Part shown: in pieces, positions 4,141 to 13,208 of the stretch
How the letters are laid out: each line of letters opens with the position of its first letter
Numbering within the stretch: position 1 is the stretch's first letter
Assembly (NCBI GenBank): GCA_910588195.1
Contig: CAJUPN010000001.1
Coordinates: forward strand, 211,343 to 275,342
Length of the DNA stretch: 64,000 nt
Source of the DNA: an uncultured Bacilli bacterium
GTDB lineage: Bacteria > Bacillota_I > Bacilli_A > RF39 > UBA660
Reading direction: 5' to 3'
Made by a program: the position numbers and the translations under genes
Notes under the pieces: model-generated
Databases searched by the model: none
Seen by the model: the letters and a program-made list of their open reading frames with translations, nothing else
What the model was told of the DNA's origin: nothing

Positions 4141-6549
4141 ATGGCAGAGTTACAAGAACACTTTAAGATGGATTACAAAAGAATATTACCTAATGCTAAT
4201 CATGTTATTAAAGGTAATAAATATCGTATTACTGTGTTATCTGATTTGTTAGTTAGACTTGAGTATTCAGAAACTGGTGCATTTGAAGATAGACCAACTG
4301 AACTTGTGATGAATAGAAAGTTTCCTGTAGCTAATTTTGAAAAAAAAGAGGATAATAAATTCCTTACTATTAAAACTTCTTATTTTACTTTAACTTATCA
4401 AAAAGAGATGCCTTTTATTGGGTCAAAAGTATCTCCAGATCAATATTTAAGAATTGATTTAAATGGTACTGATAAGTTTTGGTATTTTAATCATCCAGAA
4501 GTTAGAAATTTTGGTGGGACATCATTTTCTTTAGATGGAGCTGATGGTCATGCTAAATATGGAAAGGGTCTTTATAGTACTGATGGTTTTGTTTCTCTAG
4601 ATGATGCCAATACTTTAATATTTAATGAAGATGGAACTTTAGGGAAAAGAAGTGACAAGAGAGTAGACACTTATGTATTTATGTATAAGCGTGATTTTGG
4701 TGCTTGTCTAAGAGATTACTTTACTTTAACTGAGTATCCACCGTTAATTCCAAGATATTCTTTGGGTGTGTGGTGGAATAGAAATATTTTATATGATTCT
4801 AAAGAGATTGAGAGATTGGTTTATAAATTTAATAAAAACAGGGTCCCTTTATCAATTATTATGTTGGGAGATAAATGGCATAGACAAATGAGTAAGATGT
4901 CCTCTGGTTTATCATTTGATGAAAAATTATTTAAAAGACCGAAAAGAATGACCGATTTTTTACATAGTAAAAATATTCGTTTAGTTGTTAAAGTTAATCC
5001 TTTAGAAGGAATAAGTAAAGATGAGGATTATTTTTTACCATTTAAAAATGCGTCAGGTTTAGAAGGGGATATAAAGTTGCCTTTCAATGTCTTTAATAAA
5101 AATGTCTTAAGTGCCTATTTTGATTATTTAATTCATCCTCTTATGAATTATGGAGTGGATTTCTTTTGGATAGATTATGATAACATTAATGATCGAACTA
5201 ACTTAAGAGCACTTACACATTATCATTTTAATGATTTTAAACAGATAACTAATCGTCGCGGAATAACTCTTGCACGAAATGCTTTAATAGCAGCTCATAG
5301 ATATCCTATTCATTATACTGGGGAAACTCTAGTAAGTTGGAAGAATTTAGAGTTACTACCAACATATAATTCTACAGCATCAAATTTAGGATTATCTTGG
5401 ATTAGTAATGATATAGGCGGTTATACTGATGGTATTGAAGATGGGGAGTTATATTCAAGGTTTGTTCAATTTGGTTGTTTTTCTCCTATTTTGCGTCTTT
5501 CTGCTGATGAAGGAAGATATTATAAAAGAGAGCCTTGGAAATGGGATATTACAACTCAATCTGTCGTAAGTCAATATTTACGATTAAGACACGCGTTAAT
5601 ACCATATCTTTATAGTGAAGCTTTTAGATATACTAAAACTGGACTTCCACTTGTACAACCTTTGTATTATCGTTACCCAGAAATTTATGATGAACCATTA
5701 TATAAATCAGAATATTATTTTGGATCTTCTTTATTTGTTGCTCCTATTACAACAAAAAGAGATAACTTAATGGATAGAACAATTTTAAAGTTATTTTTAC
5801 CTGATGGAGTATGGTATGACTTTACAACTGGTAAAAGGTATGCTGGTGGTAAAAGATATACTACATTTTATAAACAAGAAGATTATCCAGTATTTGCTAA
5901 AGCAGGGACAATTATTCCCATGGCAATACTTGATGAAAGAAATATAAATGATACGAACCCTCCTAAAGCTATGGAAATTCAAATATTTCCAGGGGAGAGT
6001 AATACTTATGAATTATATGAAGATGATGGAATATCTTCTCTTTATGAAAAAGGCTTTTTTATAGTTTCGGATATTGATTATACATATCAAAAAAATAATT
6101 ATACTGTTACTATTAGACCTGTTGCTGGTAAGAGTGGAATAATTCCGCCTCATCGTGCTTATCGAATTAGATTTAGAAATGTTAGAGAGCCAGAAGAAGT
6201 TCTTATTAGAGTTGGTAATGAAAAAGTTAAAGGAGCAGAAAGTTATGTTGATGATAATGATTTTGTAATTGAATTACCAGCTTTATCAACATTAAAACAA
6301 GTAACTATATCTGTTAAAGGAAAGAATTTAGAAATAGATGCAGTAAGATTAGTTAATGATGATATAGAATCAATTCTAAATGACTTACCTATTCAAACAA
6401 AGATTAAAAATGTTATTGGTGAAACACTTCTTAGTGATACTGATATAAAGCAAAAACGTATTGAAGTTCGTAAATTAAAGAAATTAGGAGTTCATCAAAA
6501 ATATATTAATTTATTCTTAAAACTCCTTGAATATTTAGCTGAAGTTTAG
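4141..6549 (+). CDS. glycoside hydrolase family 31 (alpha-glucosidase/alpha-xylosidase-like)
   Basis: About 800 aa. GH31-like catalytic region ...VDFFWIDYDN... is present, plus an N-terminal beta-sandwich and C-terminal domains. Start chosen at ATG 4141 after RBS agggtgaaggg; the ORF track begins earlier at 4087. Confidence 0.75.
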   Translation: MAELQEHFKMDYKRILPNANHVIKGNKYRITVLSDLLVRLEYSETGAFEDRPTELVMNRKFPVANFEKKEDNKFLTIKTSYFTLTYQKEMPFIGSKVSPDQYLRIDLNGTDKFWYFNHPEVRNFGGTSFSLDGADGHAKYGKGLYSTDGFVSLDDANTLIFNEDGTLGKRSDKRVDTYVFMYKRDFGACLRDYFTLTEYPPLIPRYSLGVWWNRNILYDSKEIERLVYKFNKNRVPLSIIMLGDKWHRQMSKMSSGLSFDEKLFKRPKRMTDFLHSKNIRLVVKVNPLEGISKDEDYFLPFKNASGLEGDIKLPFNVFNKNVLSAYFDYLIHPLMNYGVDFFWIDYDNINDRTNLRALTHYHFNDFKQITNRRGITLARNALIAAHRYPIHYTGETLVSWKNLELLPTYNSTASNLGLSWISNDIGGYTDGIEDGELYSRFVQFGCFSPILRLSADEGRYYKREPWKWDITTQSVVSQYLRLRHALIPYLYSEAFRYTKTGLPLVQPLYYRYPEIYDEPLYKSEYYFGSSLFVAPITTKRDNLMDRTILKLFLPDGVWYDFTTGKRYAGGKRYTTFYKQEDYPVFAKAGTIIPMAILDERNINDTNPPKAMEIQIFPGESNTYELYEDDGISSLYEKGFFIVSDIDYTYQKNNYTVTIRPVAGKSGIIPPHRAYRIRFRNVREPEEVLIRVGNEKVKGAESYVDDNDFVIELPALSTLKQVTISVKGKNLEIDAVRLVNDDIESILNDLPIQTKIKNVIGETLLSDTDIKQKRIEVRKLKKLGVHQKYINLFLKLLEYLAEV

Positions 6550-6555
6550 TATAAT
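6527..6555 (+). promoter_or_regulatory. sigma-A-like promoter (TTGAAT-17-TATAAT) for the leuS leader
   Basis: ttgaat at ~6527 and tataat at ~6550 with a 17-nt spacer, located in the last codons of the GH31 gene. Confidence 0.45.
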
Positions 6556-6559
6556 CATT

Positions 6560-6750
6560 ATCAAGCAGAGGAAGAAAAAGTAGTAGATTAGGAGTCTATA
6601 AAAGAGAGTTACTGGTGGTGGAAAGTAATATAGATGAATAATTGAACTTGTTTTTGGATGTGTTAGGGTGATTTCTTTATTAATCATTAGAGTATAAATT
6701 AAGGTGGTACCACGAGTCTTTCGTCCTTTGGATGAAGGCTTTTTTTATTT
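6560..6750 (+). promoter_or_regulatory. T-box riboswitch leader (controls small membrane ORF + leuS)
   Basis: T-box consensus aaggtggtaccacgag at 6701-6716. An AGAGAG box lies upstream, and the terminator (tcgtcctttgg...gaaggcttttttt) overlaps the T-box as expected for an antiterminator/terminator switch. Confidence 0.75.
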
Positions 6751-6764
6751 AAGGAGGAAAGTAT

Positions 6765-7109
6765 ATGCAATATTTATTATGGTATTTAATAATTTTTTTG
6801 ATAATATTATTAGTCCTCTATATATTAGAGTTTTATATACCAGATAAGAAAAATACGTTAGGTAATAGTAAGGTATATAATTTTATATCTAAAAAGTTTA
6901 ATTTAAATATGGGTAAAAAAAGAGTTAGAATATTGAGTAAAATAATTGTTTTTGCTAATACTTTTATTTTATCAATACCAATAATGATGGTTTTATTTGT
7001 TAATTTAAATTATCTGGAAGTTTTAGGTATTTCACTTTTAATTTTTACGGTGTTAATATTAATAGTTTATAATTTTATAGGATATATATTGAAAAAGAAA
7101 GGTTGGTAA
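6765..7109 (+). CDS. small multi-pass membrane protein (3-4 TM), unknown function
   Basis: 114 aa with strong RBS aaggagg and hydrophobic segments. It lies between the T-box terminator and leuS, and its stop overlaps the leuS start region. Confidence 0.45.
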
Positions 7110-7111
7110 TT

Positions 7112-10100
7112 ATGGATTATAATTATAAAGAGATAGAAAAAAAATGGCAAAATTTTTGGGATAGTAATAAGACTTTTAAAACTGATATAAGGGATTTTTC
7201 TAAACCTAAGTTTTATGCGTTAGATATGTTTCCTTATCCTTCAGGAGTTGGATTACATGCAGGACATCCAGAAGGTTATACAGCAACAGATATTATATCA
7301 AGAATGAAAAGAATGCAAGGATATAATGTTTTACATCCAATGGGATATGATTCATTTGGACTTCCAGCTGAACAGTATGCTGTTCAAACAGGAAATCATC
7401 CTAGTAAATTTACAGATGAAAATATTGAAACATTTACTAAACAGTTAAAAGAATTAGGTTTTGATTATGATTGGGATCGTGTAGTTGCTACATCTGATCC
7501 AAGTTTTTATAAATGGACTCAATGGATATTTAAACAATTGTATAATGATGGTTATGCAAAGTATATTGATATGCCTGTTAATTGGTGTGAAGAGTTGGGA
7601 ACTGTTTTATCCAATGATGAAGTAATAGATGGTAAAAGTGAACGTGGAGGATATCCAGTAATTAGAAAAAATATGCGTCAATTATGTATTGATCAAGCAG
7701 CATTTGCAGAAAAGTTACTTGAGGGACTTGAAACTATTGACTGGCCAAATTCTACTAAAGAAATTCAAAAAAATTGGATTGGTAAGTCAATTGGTGCTCA
7801 TGTTGATTTTGTTGTGGATGGTTATTCTGATAAATTTACAGTTTTTACAACAAGATGTGATACTTTATTTGGTGCAACATACTGTGTCTTAGCACCAGAG
7901 CATGAATTAGTTGATAAAATTACTACTGAAGATAAACGTCAAGAAGTAGCAGATTATAAAGCTCAATGTGCTTTAAAAAATGATATGGAAAGAACTGAAT
8001 TAAATAAGGAAAAAACTGGTGTATTTACGGGTGCTTATGCAATTAATCCTGTTAATGATTCACGTATACCAATTTATATAAGCGATTATGTTTTATCTAC
8101 ATATGGAACTGGTGCTATTATGGCTGTACCAGCACATGATGATCGTGATTATGAATTTGCTAAAAAGTTTAATATACCAATAGTTCAAGTTTTAGCAAAA
8201 TCTTTTGTAGGTACAGGAGACTCACAAATTAGAGAAGATAAGCCAATGACTAATCGTAATGTAGTAAATGTTGTTATTAAACATCCTAGCGAAAATAAAT
8301 ATTTATGTGTTCATAATAAAAAGTTTAATTGGATAAACTTTGTTATGGGTGGAATTGAAGGAAATGAATCAGTAATTGAAGCTGGTATTAGAGAAGTAGT
8401 TGAAGAAACTGGTTATACTGATATTAAAATAGATAAAGAATTAGAATTTATTTACTTTGATAATTTCTATGCAGCTCATAAAGATGTTAATCGTCATATT
8501 ACTTGTCATACGATTGTTGGACATTTAAATAGTTTAGAACAAGTAAATATAAGTGATGAAGAAAAAGCTTTAGCTGATTACTTATGGATTCAGGAAAATG
8601 AATTAATAGACTCTTTAACAACGGAAGCTCACAAGTATGATGCTAGACGTGTACTTAACGGAGAAGGTGCAATGACTGAAGATGGTGTACATATTAATTC
8701 TTGTACTCCATTACAAGTTACTGGAACACCACATGAAAATGAATTTAAAAAGAATTCAATTGTCGCTATTGTTTATGATGAAAAAAATGATAAGTATTTA
8801 ACAATAAATTGGAAAGATAAAGGTGGACGTTTATTTATTGGTGGATCTATTAATGACGGAGAAACTCCACTTGAATGTGCTTTAAGAGAAGTAGCCGAAG
8901 AGACTGGTTATAAAAATTTAGAATTTATTTCTGAACTTCCAAAAATAAATCATCATTATTATGCTTTTAATAAGGATAAATATTTTAATATAATATCGAC
9001 TGGTTTTTTATTTAAATTAGTAGATGATGAAAAAGGTTCTCAAAATTTAGATGATGATGAAGAATTTAGTGTTGAATGGGTTTCAAAAGAAGTTATCGAG
9101 TCAGAAATAAAAGATGAATTACATATAGAAACTTATAAGCATTCTAAAGCAATAGATAAGATAGATATTTTAGATTTAAATGATTTATTAAAGAGTGAAG
9201 CTATTGAAAAAACAATATCTTGGTTAGAAGAGCATGGTAAAGGAACTAAAAAAGTTAATTATAAAATGCGTGAATGGATATTTGCAAGACAAAGATATTG
9301 GGGGGAGCCTGTACCAATCGTTCATATGGAGGATGGATCAGACTATATTTTAGAAGATCAAGAATTGCCACTTTGTTTACCAGAACTTGATGATTATAAG
9401 GGACATATTGGACTTGCTCCTCTTGAGAATGCCAGTGAATGGAAAAAATATGAGAAAAATGGTGTCAAAGGAGTTAGAGAAACTTCTACAATGCCAGGGA
9501 GTGCAGGATCTAGTTGGTATTTCTTAAGATATATTGATCCTAAAAATGATAACGCTTTTGCAGATCAAGAGTTATTAAAACATTGGATGCCAGTGGATTT
9601 ATATGTTGGTGGACCAGAACACGCAGTTGGACATTTAATGTATTCTAGAATTTGGAATCGTTATCTTTATGATAAAGGATTATCTCCTGTTGCTGAACCA
9701 TTTAAGAAGTTAGTTCATCAAGGAATGATTTTAGGAGAAAATGGAATAAAGATGGGTAAGAGATTCCCTAAATATGTTATTAATCCATCGGATATTATCC
9801 GGGATTATGGAGCAGATACTTTAAGACTTTATGAAATGTTCATGGGACCGCTTGAAGCTTCTAAGCCTTGGAGTCCAACAGGTGTTGAAGGGGCTAAAAA
9901 GTTTTTAGATCGTATTTGGAGATTATATGCTGATGAAAATAGAATATCTGATAGTGAGAATAAAAATTTAGAAAAAGTTTATCATGCTACTGTTAAAAAG
10001 GTAACTTCTGATTATGAGGCATTAGCATTTAATACAGCAATAAGTCAATTAATGGTATTTATTAATGCTGTATATAAAGAGGATGTATTCCCAAGAGAGT

Positions 10101-10429
10101 ATGCAGAAGGTTTCATAAAATTACTTAATCCAATTGCTCCACATATTACAGAAGAATTATGGAGTACTGTTTTAGGACATGATGATACAATTGCATTTGA
10201 ATCTTGGCCAAAGTTTGATGAGTCTAAAATAGTTGAAGACTTCTTAACTATTGGAGTACAAGTTAATGGTAAATTAAGAGGAACTATAACTGTACCAGTT
10301 GATAGTACAGAAGATCAAATTAAAGAATCAGCATTTGAAGAAGAAAATGTAAAAAGACACACTGATGGAAAAGAAATAGTAAAAGTAATAGTAATTAAAG
10401 GAAAAATAGTTAATATCGTTATAAAATAA
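7112..10429 (+). CDS. leuS: leucyl-tRNA synthetase with ~280-aa insertion carrying two Nudix hydrolase motifs
   Basis: Class I aaRS signatures are present: HAGHPEGY (HIGH), a KMGKR (KMSKS-type) loop, and an editing domain ([24 protein letters not shown]). Two perfect Nudix boxes are inserted: [23 protein letters not shown] and [24 protein letters not shown]. Length is 1105-1108 aa versus about 800-860 for typical bacterial LeuRS. Confidence 0.9.
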
Positions 10430-10579: not shown

Positions 10580-11779
10580 ATGAAAAAGATGAATGCGTTT
10601 TTATTAATATTATTTTTAATTATAGGTTTTGCTGCAGTTTCTACCAATCTATTTATTAATGTTATTGCAAATATCGGTGAAAATAAAGAAGATTTTGATG
10701 TGATTTTTTATAGTGCGATGTTAGATGAGTTAGTAGTCTCTAGTAGTGTAATAAGCGAAGACAAGAAAACTATTAATTATTCGACGAATGAGCTTACAAT
10801 TCCAAATGAATCATCTGTTTTAGTATTTTCAGTTTTAAATAATTCAAGTTTTTATGATGCTGAGGTCTCGATTGAATGCAATATTCCTTTAAGTAATGAA
10901 TATTCAGTATCAGTAACACCAGAAGAAATGGTTATATCTGCCGGAAAAAGAAGAGATGGAACAATCTCTGTAAACTTAAATAAACCGTTGATAGAGGCAA
11001 AAGAAATTAACTTTTCTTGTAAATTAATTTCTAATGCAATTGAAAGAGATTCAAGTGTCGATAAAGTATATGATAGAACTAATTATGATGTTGTTTTAGT
11101 TGGAGACAGCATCATGAATGGTTATGGAAATGATCAAAAGAGTTTTGATTATTATTTGAAAAATGATGGTTTAGCTAATAATGTTTTAAATTTATCAGAA
11201 AATGGAGCAATGCTATTCAACTCTACATATGTTGATGAAAAACAGTTAATATTAGAAAATCAAATAAGAATGCAACTGTTTGGAAAAGCAGTAAATATAA
11301 GAGATGGTTCATTGTTAATTATGAATGGTGGAGCAAATGATTTGGTTTATAATTTGCAATATGATTCTTATAAATTGGGAGTTGAAAGTGTAGATGATTT
11401 TTTGCAGGTATCATATTTTAATGATGTTATGAATAGTGATAATTTAGTCAAAAGAATATATGATTCATTATCTGGAGTTGCTACTACCTTTCCAAATGTT
11501 AAAATATTTTATATAAAACCAAGACTAATACCATCAGAGATAACTAAATATTATAAGGATACTAACTTAATAAATGACGATATTGCTTTATTTAATCAAG
11601 CAATTGATATTTGGGAAGAAAGAATAGGTTCTAAAAAATATCCAAATTTGCATATATTGGATAGTAACGATTATATCTTAGAAAGTGATCTTAAATATTC
11701 TAGTGATTCATCAGATGGTCTTCATTGGTTGGAAAGTGCATATCTTAAAATGTATGATGAAATAAAGAAAATCAATTAA
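10580..11779 (+). CDS. secreted SGNH/GDSL-family hydrolase with shared N-terminal module
   Basis: N-terminal signal/anchor MKKMNAFLLILFLIIGFAAVST.. GDSL block VVLVGDSIMNGYGN. N-terminal ~100 aa are homologous to the ORFs at 12912 and 48930. Confidence 0.65.
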   Translation: MKKMNAFLLILFLIIGFAAVSTNLFINVIANIGENKEDFDVIFYSAMLDELVVSSSVISEDKKTINYSTNELTIPNESSVLVFSVLNNSSFYDAEVSIECNIPLSNEYSVSVTPEEMVISAGKRRDGTISVNLNKPLIEAKEINFSCKLISNAIERDSSVDKVYDRTNYDVVLVGDSIMNGYGNDQKSFDYYLKNDGLANNVLNLSENGAMLFNSTYVDEKQLILENQIRMQLFGKAVNIRDGSLLIMNGGANDLVYNLQYDSYKLGVESVDDFLQVSYFNDVMNSDNLVKRIYDSLSGVATTFPNVKIFYIKPRLIPSEITKYYKDTNLINDDIALFNQAIDIWEERIGSKKYPNLHILDSNDYILESDLKYSSDSSDGLHWLESAYLKMYDEIKKIN

Positions 11780-11860: not shown

Positions 11861-12226
11861 TTATTTTAATTTATCATAAATTATTTCTAAGTCAACTATT
11901 GGTTGGACAGAATCATACCCTGGGGTTAGATGGATATGAAAATGCTTAATTTCTTGACAAGATCCTGAATTAGTTATTACTTGAAATCCTGTGCAATCTA
12001 ATCTTTCTTGAACTAATACAGATAAATCTTTTAAAATTTTATTTATATGAACATTTTCTTCATCAGTTAATTTAGTAAAGTTTTCGGCATGTCTTTTTAA
12101 TAGAATAAGTAAGTCTCCATTTTGTTCAGGATTAATATTCATGATAACTTTAACAATATCATCTTCATAAATCTTTTTTGATGGTATTTCATCTTTTATA
12201 ATTTTACAAAATATACAATCTTTCAT
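11861..12226 (-). CDS. HIT-family (histidine triad) nucleotide hydrolase
   Basis: 121 aa with C-terminal HFHIHLTP histidine triad motif (HxHxHxx). Confidence 0.85.
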   Translation of the reverse strand: MKDCIFCKIIKDEIPSKKIYEDDIVKVIMNINPEQNGDLLILLKRHAENFTKLTDEENVHINKILKDLSVLVQERLDCTGFQVITNSGSCQEIKHFHIHLTPGYDSVQPIVDLEIIYDKLK

Positions 12227-12911: not shown

Positions 12912-13208
12912 TTGTTAGTTGTTATTTTGTTGTTGGTAATAGGTTTTGCGGGAGTAGCTACTACACTTGTTATTAATGGTAAAGCTTTTATTGGAGCTAA
13001 CGAAAGTGATTATAAAATATATTTTAGTGAAGCTATATTGGATGATAAAGATAAGACTAATTCTATAATAAGCGAAAATAAACAAGAAATAAGTTTTGAA
13101 ACGAAGGAATTAGTAGAATTGATGGATGAATCTAACTTAAACTTTGAGGTTACAAATAATTCCAGTCAATATGACGCAGAGGTAAAATTTATGGTGGAAA
13201 AATTGTAA
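12912..13208 (+). pseudogene. fragment of an N-terminal-module protein (signal anchor + NNSxYDAEV domain only)
   Basis: The 98-aa ORF has the same N-terminal module as 10580 and 48930 (IGFAGVATTLVING...VTNNSSQYDAEV) and then stops. Protein-like sequence continues out of frame downstream (..SASDSSTISITAGKLELIDGE..). Confidence 0.4.

Follow-up and report, generated by a model that had tools for sequence, protein, structure and literature searches.

A leucyl-tRNA synthetase of uncultured gut Bacilli with two Nudix domains nested in its CP1 editing domain

The only leuS gene in the window, that is, in the whole 64-kb stretch of DNA analysed (64,000 nucleotides (nt); GenBank assembly GCA_910588195.1, contig CAJUPN010000001.1, positions 211,343 to 275,342), encodes a leucyl-tRNA synthetase (LeuRS) from an uncultured low-GC lineage of gut 'Bacilli' that is abundant in gut metagenomes. 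As judged from its sequence, this LeuRS contains two compact Nudix domains of distinct lineages, which are nested in adjacent surface loops of the CP1 editing domain, towards its C-terminus. Enzyme and domain are both of known kinds, whereas their nested, exchangeable architecture is new, and we are highly confident that the modules are real, nested and exchangeable. In our overall reading, to which we assign a probability of about 0.6, the CP1 editing domain would be a carrier of two active Nudix hydrolases tied to LeuRS. The gene had been singled out earlier in an interpretation of the window made without database searches, referred to here as the sequence-only reading.

Two Nudix domains within the CP1 editing domain

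The leuS gene occupies positions 7112..10429, stop codon included (here and below, positions in the gene are on the plus strand of the window), and encodes 1105 amino acids (aa) from an ATG at 7112, in agreement with the length given by the sequence-only reading. It lies in a single uninterrupted open reading frame (ORF; 7103..10429), which would yield 1108 aa from an in-frame TTG at 7103, a possible alternative start. The protein scores 984.6 bits with the NCBIfam model of bacterial LeuRS (TIGR00396, leuS_bact), against a curated cut-off of 548.4, and Pfam domains include the class I catalytic domain, the LeuRS editing domain (PF13603; aa 220-364, E 7.7e-59), Anticodon_1 and two copies of NUDIX. 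At the level of motifs, the sets for aminoacylation and editing are both complete. The HIGH motif reads HAGH (aa 49-52; 7256..7267). The main part of CP1 (aa 220-361; 7769..8194), delimited by PF13603, motifs and alignment with Thermus thermophilus LeuRS, includes the T-rich editing motif TTRCDT (aa 246-251; 7847-7864) and the GTG...HDDRD motif with the conserved Asp of HDxRD (AHDDRD; aa 332-346; 8105-8149), and terminates in the strand IPIVQVL. The C-terminal half of the LeuRS body (9248..10426) comprises the second catalytic half, the anticodon-binding domain and the C-terminal domain. Its KMSKS variant KMGKR (aa 880-884; 9749-9763) keeps both lysines and is common to the nearest Nudix-less relative (P0126, 801 aa). 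The editing signatures were thus rightly regarded as intact before, and the extra segments as additions rather than replacements.

The added material (nt 8195-9247, nearly the previously proposed span of 8220-9240) consists of aa 362-681 and a remodelled tail and makes the protein 304 aa longer than P0126. Since it maps to residues 363-396 of T. thermophilus LeuRS, the editing domain of which we take to be residues 224-417, the modules are additions inside the editing domain and do not lie between CP1 and the catalytic core, where the sequence-only reading had placed them. In an alignment with the closest relatives, the empty site of P0126 reads IPIIQVL-QDEDGNSD-GAMTGDGIHINS-EWLNGLNKTEAIDKM. 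The first module of the window enzyme, N1 (aa 362-516; 8195..8659), is defined by Pfam, its Nudix box (aa 413-435; 8348-8416), an AlphaFold2 (AF2) model and relatives containing N1 alone (e.g. P0102/L009). It is followed by a retained native β-strand of CP1 (aa 517-530; 8660..8701), which aligns with GAMTGDGIHINS of P0126, and by the linker CTPLQV (aa 531-536; 8702..8719). In the alignment with enzymes that have only the second module, which read IPIIQVLEEVTGTPHE, this linker looks like a probable vestige of a duplicated '..IIQV(LEE)' strand. The second module, N2 (aa 537-681; 8720..9154), with its box at aa 578-600 (8843-8911), is succeeded by the remodelled C-terminal tail and last helix of CP1 (aa 682-712; 9155..9247), which align from T. 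thermophilus residue 396 on, and the catalytic core restarts at aa 713.

In single-module enzymes, the hairpin loop between IQVL and GAMTxDGxHINS is filled by either module, namely by N1 in P0102 (954 aa) and by N2 in P0103 and P0106 (940 aa). N1 of the window enzyme sits in this same loop, and N2 in the next one, ahead of the last CP1 helix. N1 and N2 are only 22% identical, indicating two Nudix lineages and no recent tandem duplication. Duplication of one module in tandem was rejected on the strength of this low identity and of the occurrence of each module alone in relatives. The term 'tandem' in the sequence-only reading does not suit the arrangement for the same reasons, the two modules being parted, moreover, by the native strand and the CTPLQV linker.

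The Nudix assignment itself was borne out by profiles and structure models. The NUDIX profile (PF00293) is significant in two stretches (E 2.9e-25; 89.3 bits versus a gathering cut-off of 21.1), and the pattern GX5EX7REUXEEXGU has exactly two matches in the protein, which are the two boxes already recognised by eye. Confident AF2 models were obtained for both modules, with the α/β/α Nudix fold; the model of N1 has a pLDDT of 91.1 and returns Nudix structures in Foldseek. The full box is kept in 309 out of 350 LeuRS-associated modules (88%, across phyla) and most of the others keep the EE pair; the deviations, found in ~12% of the modules of the wider family, often replace the Arg. Ratios of non-synonymous to synonymous substitution (dN/dS, Nei-Gojobori), calculated with dS near saturation, resemble those of the LeuRS body, with 0.06-0.17 in N1 and 0.16-0.21 in N2. 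Foreign base composition of the modules was not seen relative to either the body or the window (GC of 0.29 in N1 and 0.26 in N2, versus 0.31-0.32 in the body and 0.27 in the whole window). No further Nudix or CP1-Nudix genes are present in the 64 kb.

That a chimera or frameshift joined separate Nudix genes to leuS, a flaw that the sequence-only reading had named as fatal to its proposal, has a negligible probability. Fragmented related genes do occur, including a frameshifted gene in locus L005 and many database entries that are fragments of 280-600 aa, but the window gene is one continuous ORF, and 550 indexed blocks of the assembly collection contain the exact 1105-aa protein. An identical sequence is NCBI MCI8794405.1 ('MAG: leucine--tRNA ligase [Bacilli bacterium]'), found on 449 contigs; the protein comes from ENA, JGI, NCBI and Logan assemblies. 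The same protein on hundreds of independent metagenome contigs thus rules out an assembly artefact. In the independent contig L002, leuS differs from that of the window by five synonymous substitutions only, and orthologous double-Nudix genes with 73-84% identity are present in other species. As for L005 (positions 4853-7740 of a 799-kb contig), its single-Nudix leuS is cut into ORFs of 386 and 579 aa by a frameshift near 6000, which may reflect either an error in long reads or a genuine pseudogene or gene split; the leuS region of this contig is similar to Saccharibacteria-labelled loci. The idea of split LeuRS genes, suggested by an insert-only search that returned fragments of at most 616 aa, was rejected, because translation of L006 and a full-length search revealed intact single- and double-Nudix enzymes. 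The fragments represent short-contig or frameshift calls together with genuine free-standing paralogues.

Distribution and exchange of the modules

The window enzyme belongs to a sizeable family of LeuRS-Nudix proteins, of which the form with two lineages is the rarer one. An exhaustive HMMER search with aa 330-740 against 1.84 billion cluster representatives found 120 proteins at E<=1e-30, and relaxing the threshold to E<=1e-10 brought the number to 1463. The full-length search yielded three further double-Nudix clusters at 90% identity (P0099, P0100 and P0101, with 98%, 84% and 78% identity, respectively), more than 100 clusters of single-Nudix LeuRS of 937-954 aa (e.g. P0189 with 599 members) and two Nudix-less enzymes of 801 aa. 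LeuRS proteins with one, two or three Nudix modules, placed at three sites of the enzyme, make up over 100 clusters at 50% identity and derive from metagenome-assembled genomes (MAGs) of Bacilli, Clostridia and Saccharibacteria. When the matches were classified by phmmer with segments of the window protein as queries and counted among 50%-identity representatives, 105 modules were assigned to the C-terminal site of CP1, 17 to the junction of the N-terminal catalytic part with CP1, and four to the inside of the C-terminal half. One module was found in 119 proteins, two in 12 and three in two; the architecture of P0220 is A-N-N-CP1-N-C.

We also scanned GTDB, with one genome per species, using N1-specific peptide patterns, a design that under-samples genomes with N2 only. 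The scan returned 71 loci, all from MAGs, and in ~55 of these N1 occupies the same site of a LeuRS. By record title, the loci belong to uncultured Bacilli, 'Tenericutes/Mollicutes', Clostridia, Candidatus Saccharibacteria and other Patescibacteria, and the isolate names MGBC and Lapin suggest mouse and rabbit gut. L012, L013 and L014 encode double-Nudix LeuRS like that of the window. The only other doubles at the same site are P0099-P0101 and the distant L038 and P0243. In eight Patescibacteria/Saccharibacteria loci (L059, L061, L062, L064, L065, L068, L077 and L079), a separate Nudix gene of 170-290 aa is located ~0.7-1.2 kb 3' of the Nudix-bearing leuS; the corresponding gene of L005 comes after nusB.

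The sequence-only reading had allowed that the insert might be a common and already annotated feature of LeuRS in this lineage. The insert is widespread, not unique to the window gene, and variably present in orthologues; the hundreds of database LeuRS with Nudix modules are labelled just leucine--tRNA ligase. That it knew of no described aminoacyl-tRNA synthetase (aaRS) with embedded Nudix domains agrees with our survey, in which neither a LeuRS nor any other aaRS with Nudix modules was found described in the searchable literature.

Comparison of close relatives indicates, from their sequences, that the modules are accessory and exchangeable. Among enzymes with LeuRS bodies 86-92% identical to that of the window, all four states are found (no module, N1, N2 and N1+N2), and these relatives share the locus GH31 - 114-aa ORF - leuS - (GDSL) - HIT(-) - CotE. 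The modules of the same relatives are more diverged than the bodies, with ~80% identity in N1 and 65-72% in N2. A different pattern is seen in L012 and L014. The N- and C-terminal parts of their LeuRS body are only 48-49% identical to those of the window enzyme, whereas CP1 is 83-84%, N1 78-83% and N2 67-77% identical. The switches in identity are sharp, at ~aa 226-250 and ~aa 700-725, and are visible at the nucleotide level as well. The flanks of L012 and L014 are window-like, with conserved synteny and GH31 79-81% identical, while the LeuRS body is foreign. Conversely, L013 has distant flanks (GH31 46% identical) yet its leuS is window-like throughout. The mosaic structure of L012/L014 and the mismatched flanks of L013 indicate that whole leuS genes and the CP1+Nudix cassette have both been exchanged horizontally.

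Two body types can be distinguished among 27 N1-bearing enzymes: type I with KMGKR and no zinc cysteines, and type II with KMSKS and CxxC. When enzymes of different type are compared, the mean identity is 46% in the body and 70% in the CP1+N1 cassette, the latter being about the same as for cassettes within a type (71-74%). Related MAGs have one or the other body at one and the same syntenic position (the window versus L012, L014, L015, L020, L021, L023, L026 and L036). By these sequence comparisons, the two LeuRS bodies, although deeply divergent, have exchanged the CP1+Nudix cassette by recombination. A phage origin found no support in scans of viral contigs, which gave generic Nudix genes only, with at most ~40% identity over short stretches.

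Free-standing relatives and possible functions

The modules also have relatives outside LeuRS. Proteins of a free-standing family (~270-296 aa) combine a shortened CP1, of which a scaffold of ~100-120 aa is retained, with a Nudix domain and the last CP1 helix. The T-rich motif is lost in these mini-CP1-Nudix proteins and HDxRD mostly so, while the Nudix box is kept. In two species (L003, L083), an N2-type gene of this family lies 15-17 nt upstream of a Nudix-less leuS of 806 aa. Nudix proteins of the N1 type that stand alone (~165 aa) and lack any remnant of CP1 are encoded at L035:5956-6465, L037:5947-6498 and L043:1373-1867. They are 57-63% identical to N1 of the window over the matched segment, and the similarity spans the N-terminal 'F.GTGDSAIRPDKPMT.R' extension. 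It is possible that such proteins were donors of the inserted module or, alternatively, products of its excision.

N1-type mini-CP1-Nudix genes are further found in a four-gene module conserved in three loci (L007:6001-9641, L084:2151-5834 and L085:2191-5861; 28-45% identity between loci). It encodes a variant radical SAM protein of ~410 aa (NF045502, 161.7 bits versus a cut-off of 125), an unknown protein of ~340 aa, a CYTH protein of ~190 aa and the mini-CP1-Nudix protein of ~280 aa. Flanking genes are those of mobile elements (integrase, relaxase/MobC, TraG, IstB or TnpV). PADLOC did not recognise the four genes as a system; they may constitute an undescribed nucleotide-modifying or defence system. 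Directly downstream of the mini-CP1-Nudix gene, L084 encodes a second CYTH protein (L084:5875-6714) and a prokaryotic viperin (L084:6724-7509; PADLOC pVip E 4.5e-47, NCBIfam viperin_w_prok 153 bits, under the cut-off of 180). The equivalent position is taken by a uridine kinase in L007 and by a cytidylate kinase in L085, which also has an extra isoleucyl-tRNA synthetase (IleRS). The latter, a protein of 1045 aa (L085:6880-10017), adjoins the module and scores 955 bits with TIGR00392 and 980 bits with the MupA model, under its cut-off of 1900; it may be a second copy of the resistance type.

In the window enzyme, both modules are probably catalytically active, as the conservation of the box across the family and the dN/dS values (0.06-0.21) argue, if indirectly, for catalysis. 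N1 and N2 would be Mg2+-dependent hydrolases cleaving the pyrophosphate bond of a nucleotide substrate, and their tethering would ensure stoichiometric co-expression with LeuRS. The likeliest class of substrates would be dinucleoside polyphosphates or related adenine nucleotides of the diadenosine tetraphosphate (Ap4A) type, with N1 and N2 probably differing in preference. Nucleotides of this type are by-products of aaRS. The best PDB sequence matches of the two modules are Ap4A hydrolases (5cfi for N1, E 4e-3; 3i7u for N2, E 2e-4; ~20-23% identity). Each module also has a pair of aromatic residues downstream of the box, F/Y at +17/+18 in N1 (FYAAHK) and Y/Y at +16/+17 in N2 (HHYYA), and such a pair 16-18 residues past the box is invariant within each lineage; a Tyr at about this distance is, we assume, a feature of ApnA hydrolases and serves as a lead only. 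On these similarities, we tentatively rank an ApnA-type or related adenine nucleotide first among candidate substrates. Because members of the N2 lineage are found either inside leuS or directly upstream of it, the role of N2 is probably tied to LeuRS. Direct action of the modules on the synthetic site is unlikely. Leucyl-adenylate, proposed alongside Ap4A in the sequence-only reading, is a mixed anhydride and not a nucleoside diphosphate derivative, and from the chemistry of Nudix enzymes it would therefore be an unlikely substrate.

Several observations weigh against our reading. Characterised Nudix enzymes are only 15-23% identical to the modules, and the E-values of the PDB matches are weak (1e-3 to 1e-4). 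The structural neighbours are mixed, comprising ApnA, RNA-decapping, ADP-sugar and nucleoside triphosphate hydrolases, and a substrate call from fold neighbours was dropped for this reason. The best NCBIfam Nudix matches are below the family cut-offs, with YtkD at 49 versus 154.4 bits and RppH at 47.4 versus 118, and those to NudB and MutT are also far under theirs. As the modules fall short of every curated family cut-off, substrate identity is not transferable from known Nudix enzymes. Finally, a housekeeping role in clearing by-products is hard to reconcile with modules that are present in some close relatives, absent from others and horizontally exchanged.

The patchy occurrence, varied combination and horizontal exchange of the modules would be explained if the cassette destroyed a toxin of nucleotide type (e.g. 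an antibiotic of the aminoacyl-nucleotide kind, a modified nucleoside triphosphate that terminates chains, or a signalling nucleotide) and thereby protected LeuRS or translation. Consistent with this are the swapping, gain and loss of N1 and N2 among close relatives, the exchange of both cassettes and whole genes, the free-standing N1 paralogues in the mobile radical SAM + CYTH + Nudix module near viperin, nucleotide kinases and an extra IleRS, and a weak match of every module to the PADLOC candidate PDC-S07 (E 1e-5 to 1e-7). The viperin neighbour is, however, restricted to L084, the PDC-S07 match does not go beyond generic Nudix similarity, close relatives were not found on viral contigs, the N2 lineage is tied to leuS rather than to mobile elements, and no candidate toxin was identified. 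We consider protection of this kind unlikely, though worth keeping in view. The modules could instead remove a pyrophosphate or cap-type modification from tRNA-Leu (e.g. a 5'-triphosphate, an Np4 or NAD cap, or a CCA end with a 3'-pyrophosphate), amounting to tRNA deprotection or repair in cis. The domain in which they are nested handles the 3' end of the tRNA, their top NCBIfam Nudix matches are YtkD, an 'RNA deprotection pyrophosphohydrolase', and RppH, and decapping enzymes of the RppH and Dcp2 types rank high in both sequence and fold searches. Moreover, retention of the CP1 scaffold in free-standing forms despite the lost editing motifs suggests a role in docking to RNA or LeuRS. Yet the two NCBIfam matches are far under their cut-offs, degeneration of the T-rich and HDxRD pocket motifs makes binding of A76 by the free-standing forms doubtful, the stand-alone N1-type proteins have no CP1 remnant, and an RNA-binding extension is not evident. 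An RNA end is accordingly a decidedly unlikely target.

A broader variant, in which the mobile CP1+Nudix cassette protects in a conflict system by destroying a nucleotide toxin or by reversing a pyrophosphate or cap modification of the tRNA end, while the free-standing paralogue works in an undescribed nucleotide-modifying system with radical SAM and CYTH proteins, is rather unlikely; if true, it would describe the first 'armoured' aminoacyl-tRNA synthetase. Least probable among the functional alternatives are non-catalytic modules, acting as structural, regulatory or ligand-sensing inserts (e.g. binding a nucleotide and so modulating CP1 movement) or tolerated as passengers. The LeuRS of close relatives does without modules (P0126/L008) and the ~12% of family modules with non-canonical boxes would fit such a role, but both boxes of the window enzyme are perfect, the box is kept across phyla, dN/dS is well under 1, and at least four 90%-identity clusters and three GTDB species have retained N1 together with N2.

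Neighbouring genes and comparison with known systems

A HIT-family gene lies downstream of leuS on the minus strand (11861-12226), at the position given in the sequence-only reading, which had linked it to the Nudix modules by function. The position stands and the link does not. The HIT gene also accompanies the Nudix-less leuS of L008, and it is absent beside the N2-only leuS of L010 and L011 and at the more distant loci L003 and L006; this distribution points to local synteny rather than paired function, and a HIT-Nudix pairing was rejected. Upstream, a membrane-protein ORF of 114 aa (6765-7109), conserved at this place in relatives, ends at the leuS start. No T-box leader was detected upstream of leuS at the Rfam gathering score (region 6550-6764 and the ORF 6765-7109). 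Elsewhere in the window, the GDSL-lipase ORF (10580-11779) and a 98-aa ORF (12912-13208) have a similar hydrophobic N-terminus followed by a segment ending in '..NNSS.YDAEV', which points to a repeated N-terminal module of secreted or pilin-like type. Apart from tRNA-Leu(TAG) and tRNA-Met(CAT) (61587-61756, minus strand), no RNA genes were detected in the window.

The architecture of bacterial aaRS is regarded as conservative, and it is unexpected to find a catalytic domain from an unrelated superfamily inside an editing domain, here in one to three copies, from two lineages and at three sites. The arrangement would physically link a synthetase with nucleotide-pyrophosphate metabolism, be it that of Ap4A alarmones, RNA caps or nucleotide toxins, in a protein of a gut-abundant organism presently annotated only as 'leucine--tRNA ligase'. 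Close relatives with no module, N1 only, N2 only and N1+N2 provide natural controls. The exchange of CP1 between LeuRS bodies of ~46% identity bears on the modularity of class Ia synthetases and on LeuRS drugs that bind CP1.

In domain order and motifs, the window enzyme resembles canonical bacterial LeuRS (T. thermophilus 1H3N/2BYT; Escherichia coli 4AQ7), and its aa 3-362, 696-875 and 894-1105 align with T. thermophilus residues 4-363, 396-579 and 650-877. It differs from these enzymes in the ~304 additional residues, which form the two Nudix domains within CP1, in the absence of the leucine-specific domain and in the KMGKR form of the KMSKS loop. Fusion of a housekeeping synthetase with an unrelated small-molecule enzyme is also implied by the family name of NF040702 ('isoleucine--tRNA ligase, N-acetyltransferase domain-containing'), the basis of this comparison, although the domain added there is GNAT and not Nudix. 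Small free-standing Nudix proteins, namely the uncharacterised 2AZW of Enterococcus faecalis, the Ap4A/Ap6A hydrolases 3I7U, CT771, Ndx1 and Rv2985, and RppH, are 12-23% identical to the modules and are autonomous proteins, whereas the modules of the window are nested domains. The mini-CP1-Nudix proteins, like YbaK/ProXp and AlaX (PMC3973320), are stand-alone derivatives of an aaRS editing domain; unlike them, they have lost the T-rich motif and mostly HDxRD and carry a Nudix domain, and trans-editing is not implied. Further counterparts are single-Nudix LeuRS (P0189, P0102, P0103), which have modules of the same N1 or N2 lineage in the same CP1 hairpin loop and, in close relatives, also the locus and LeuRS body of the window. 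These enzymes contain one module, whereas the window enzyme combines both, with N2 shifted to the next loop.

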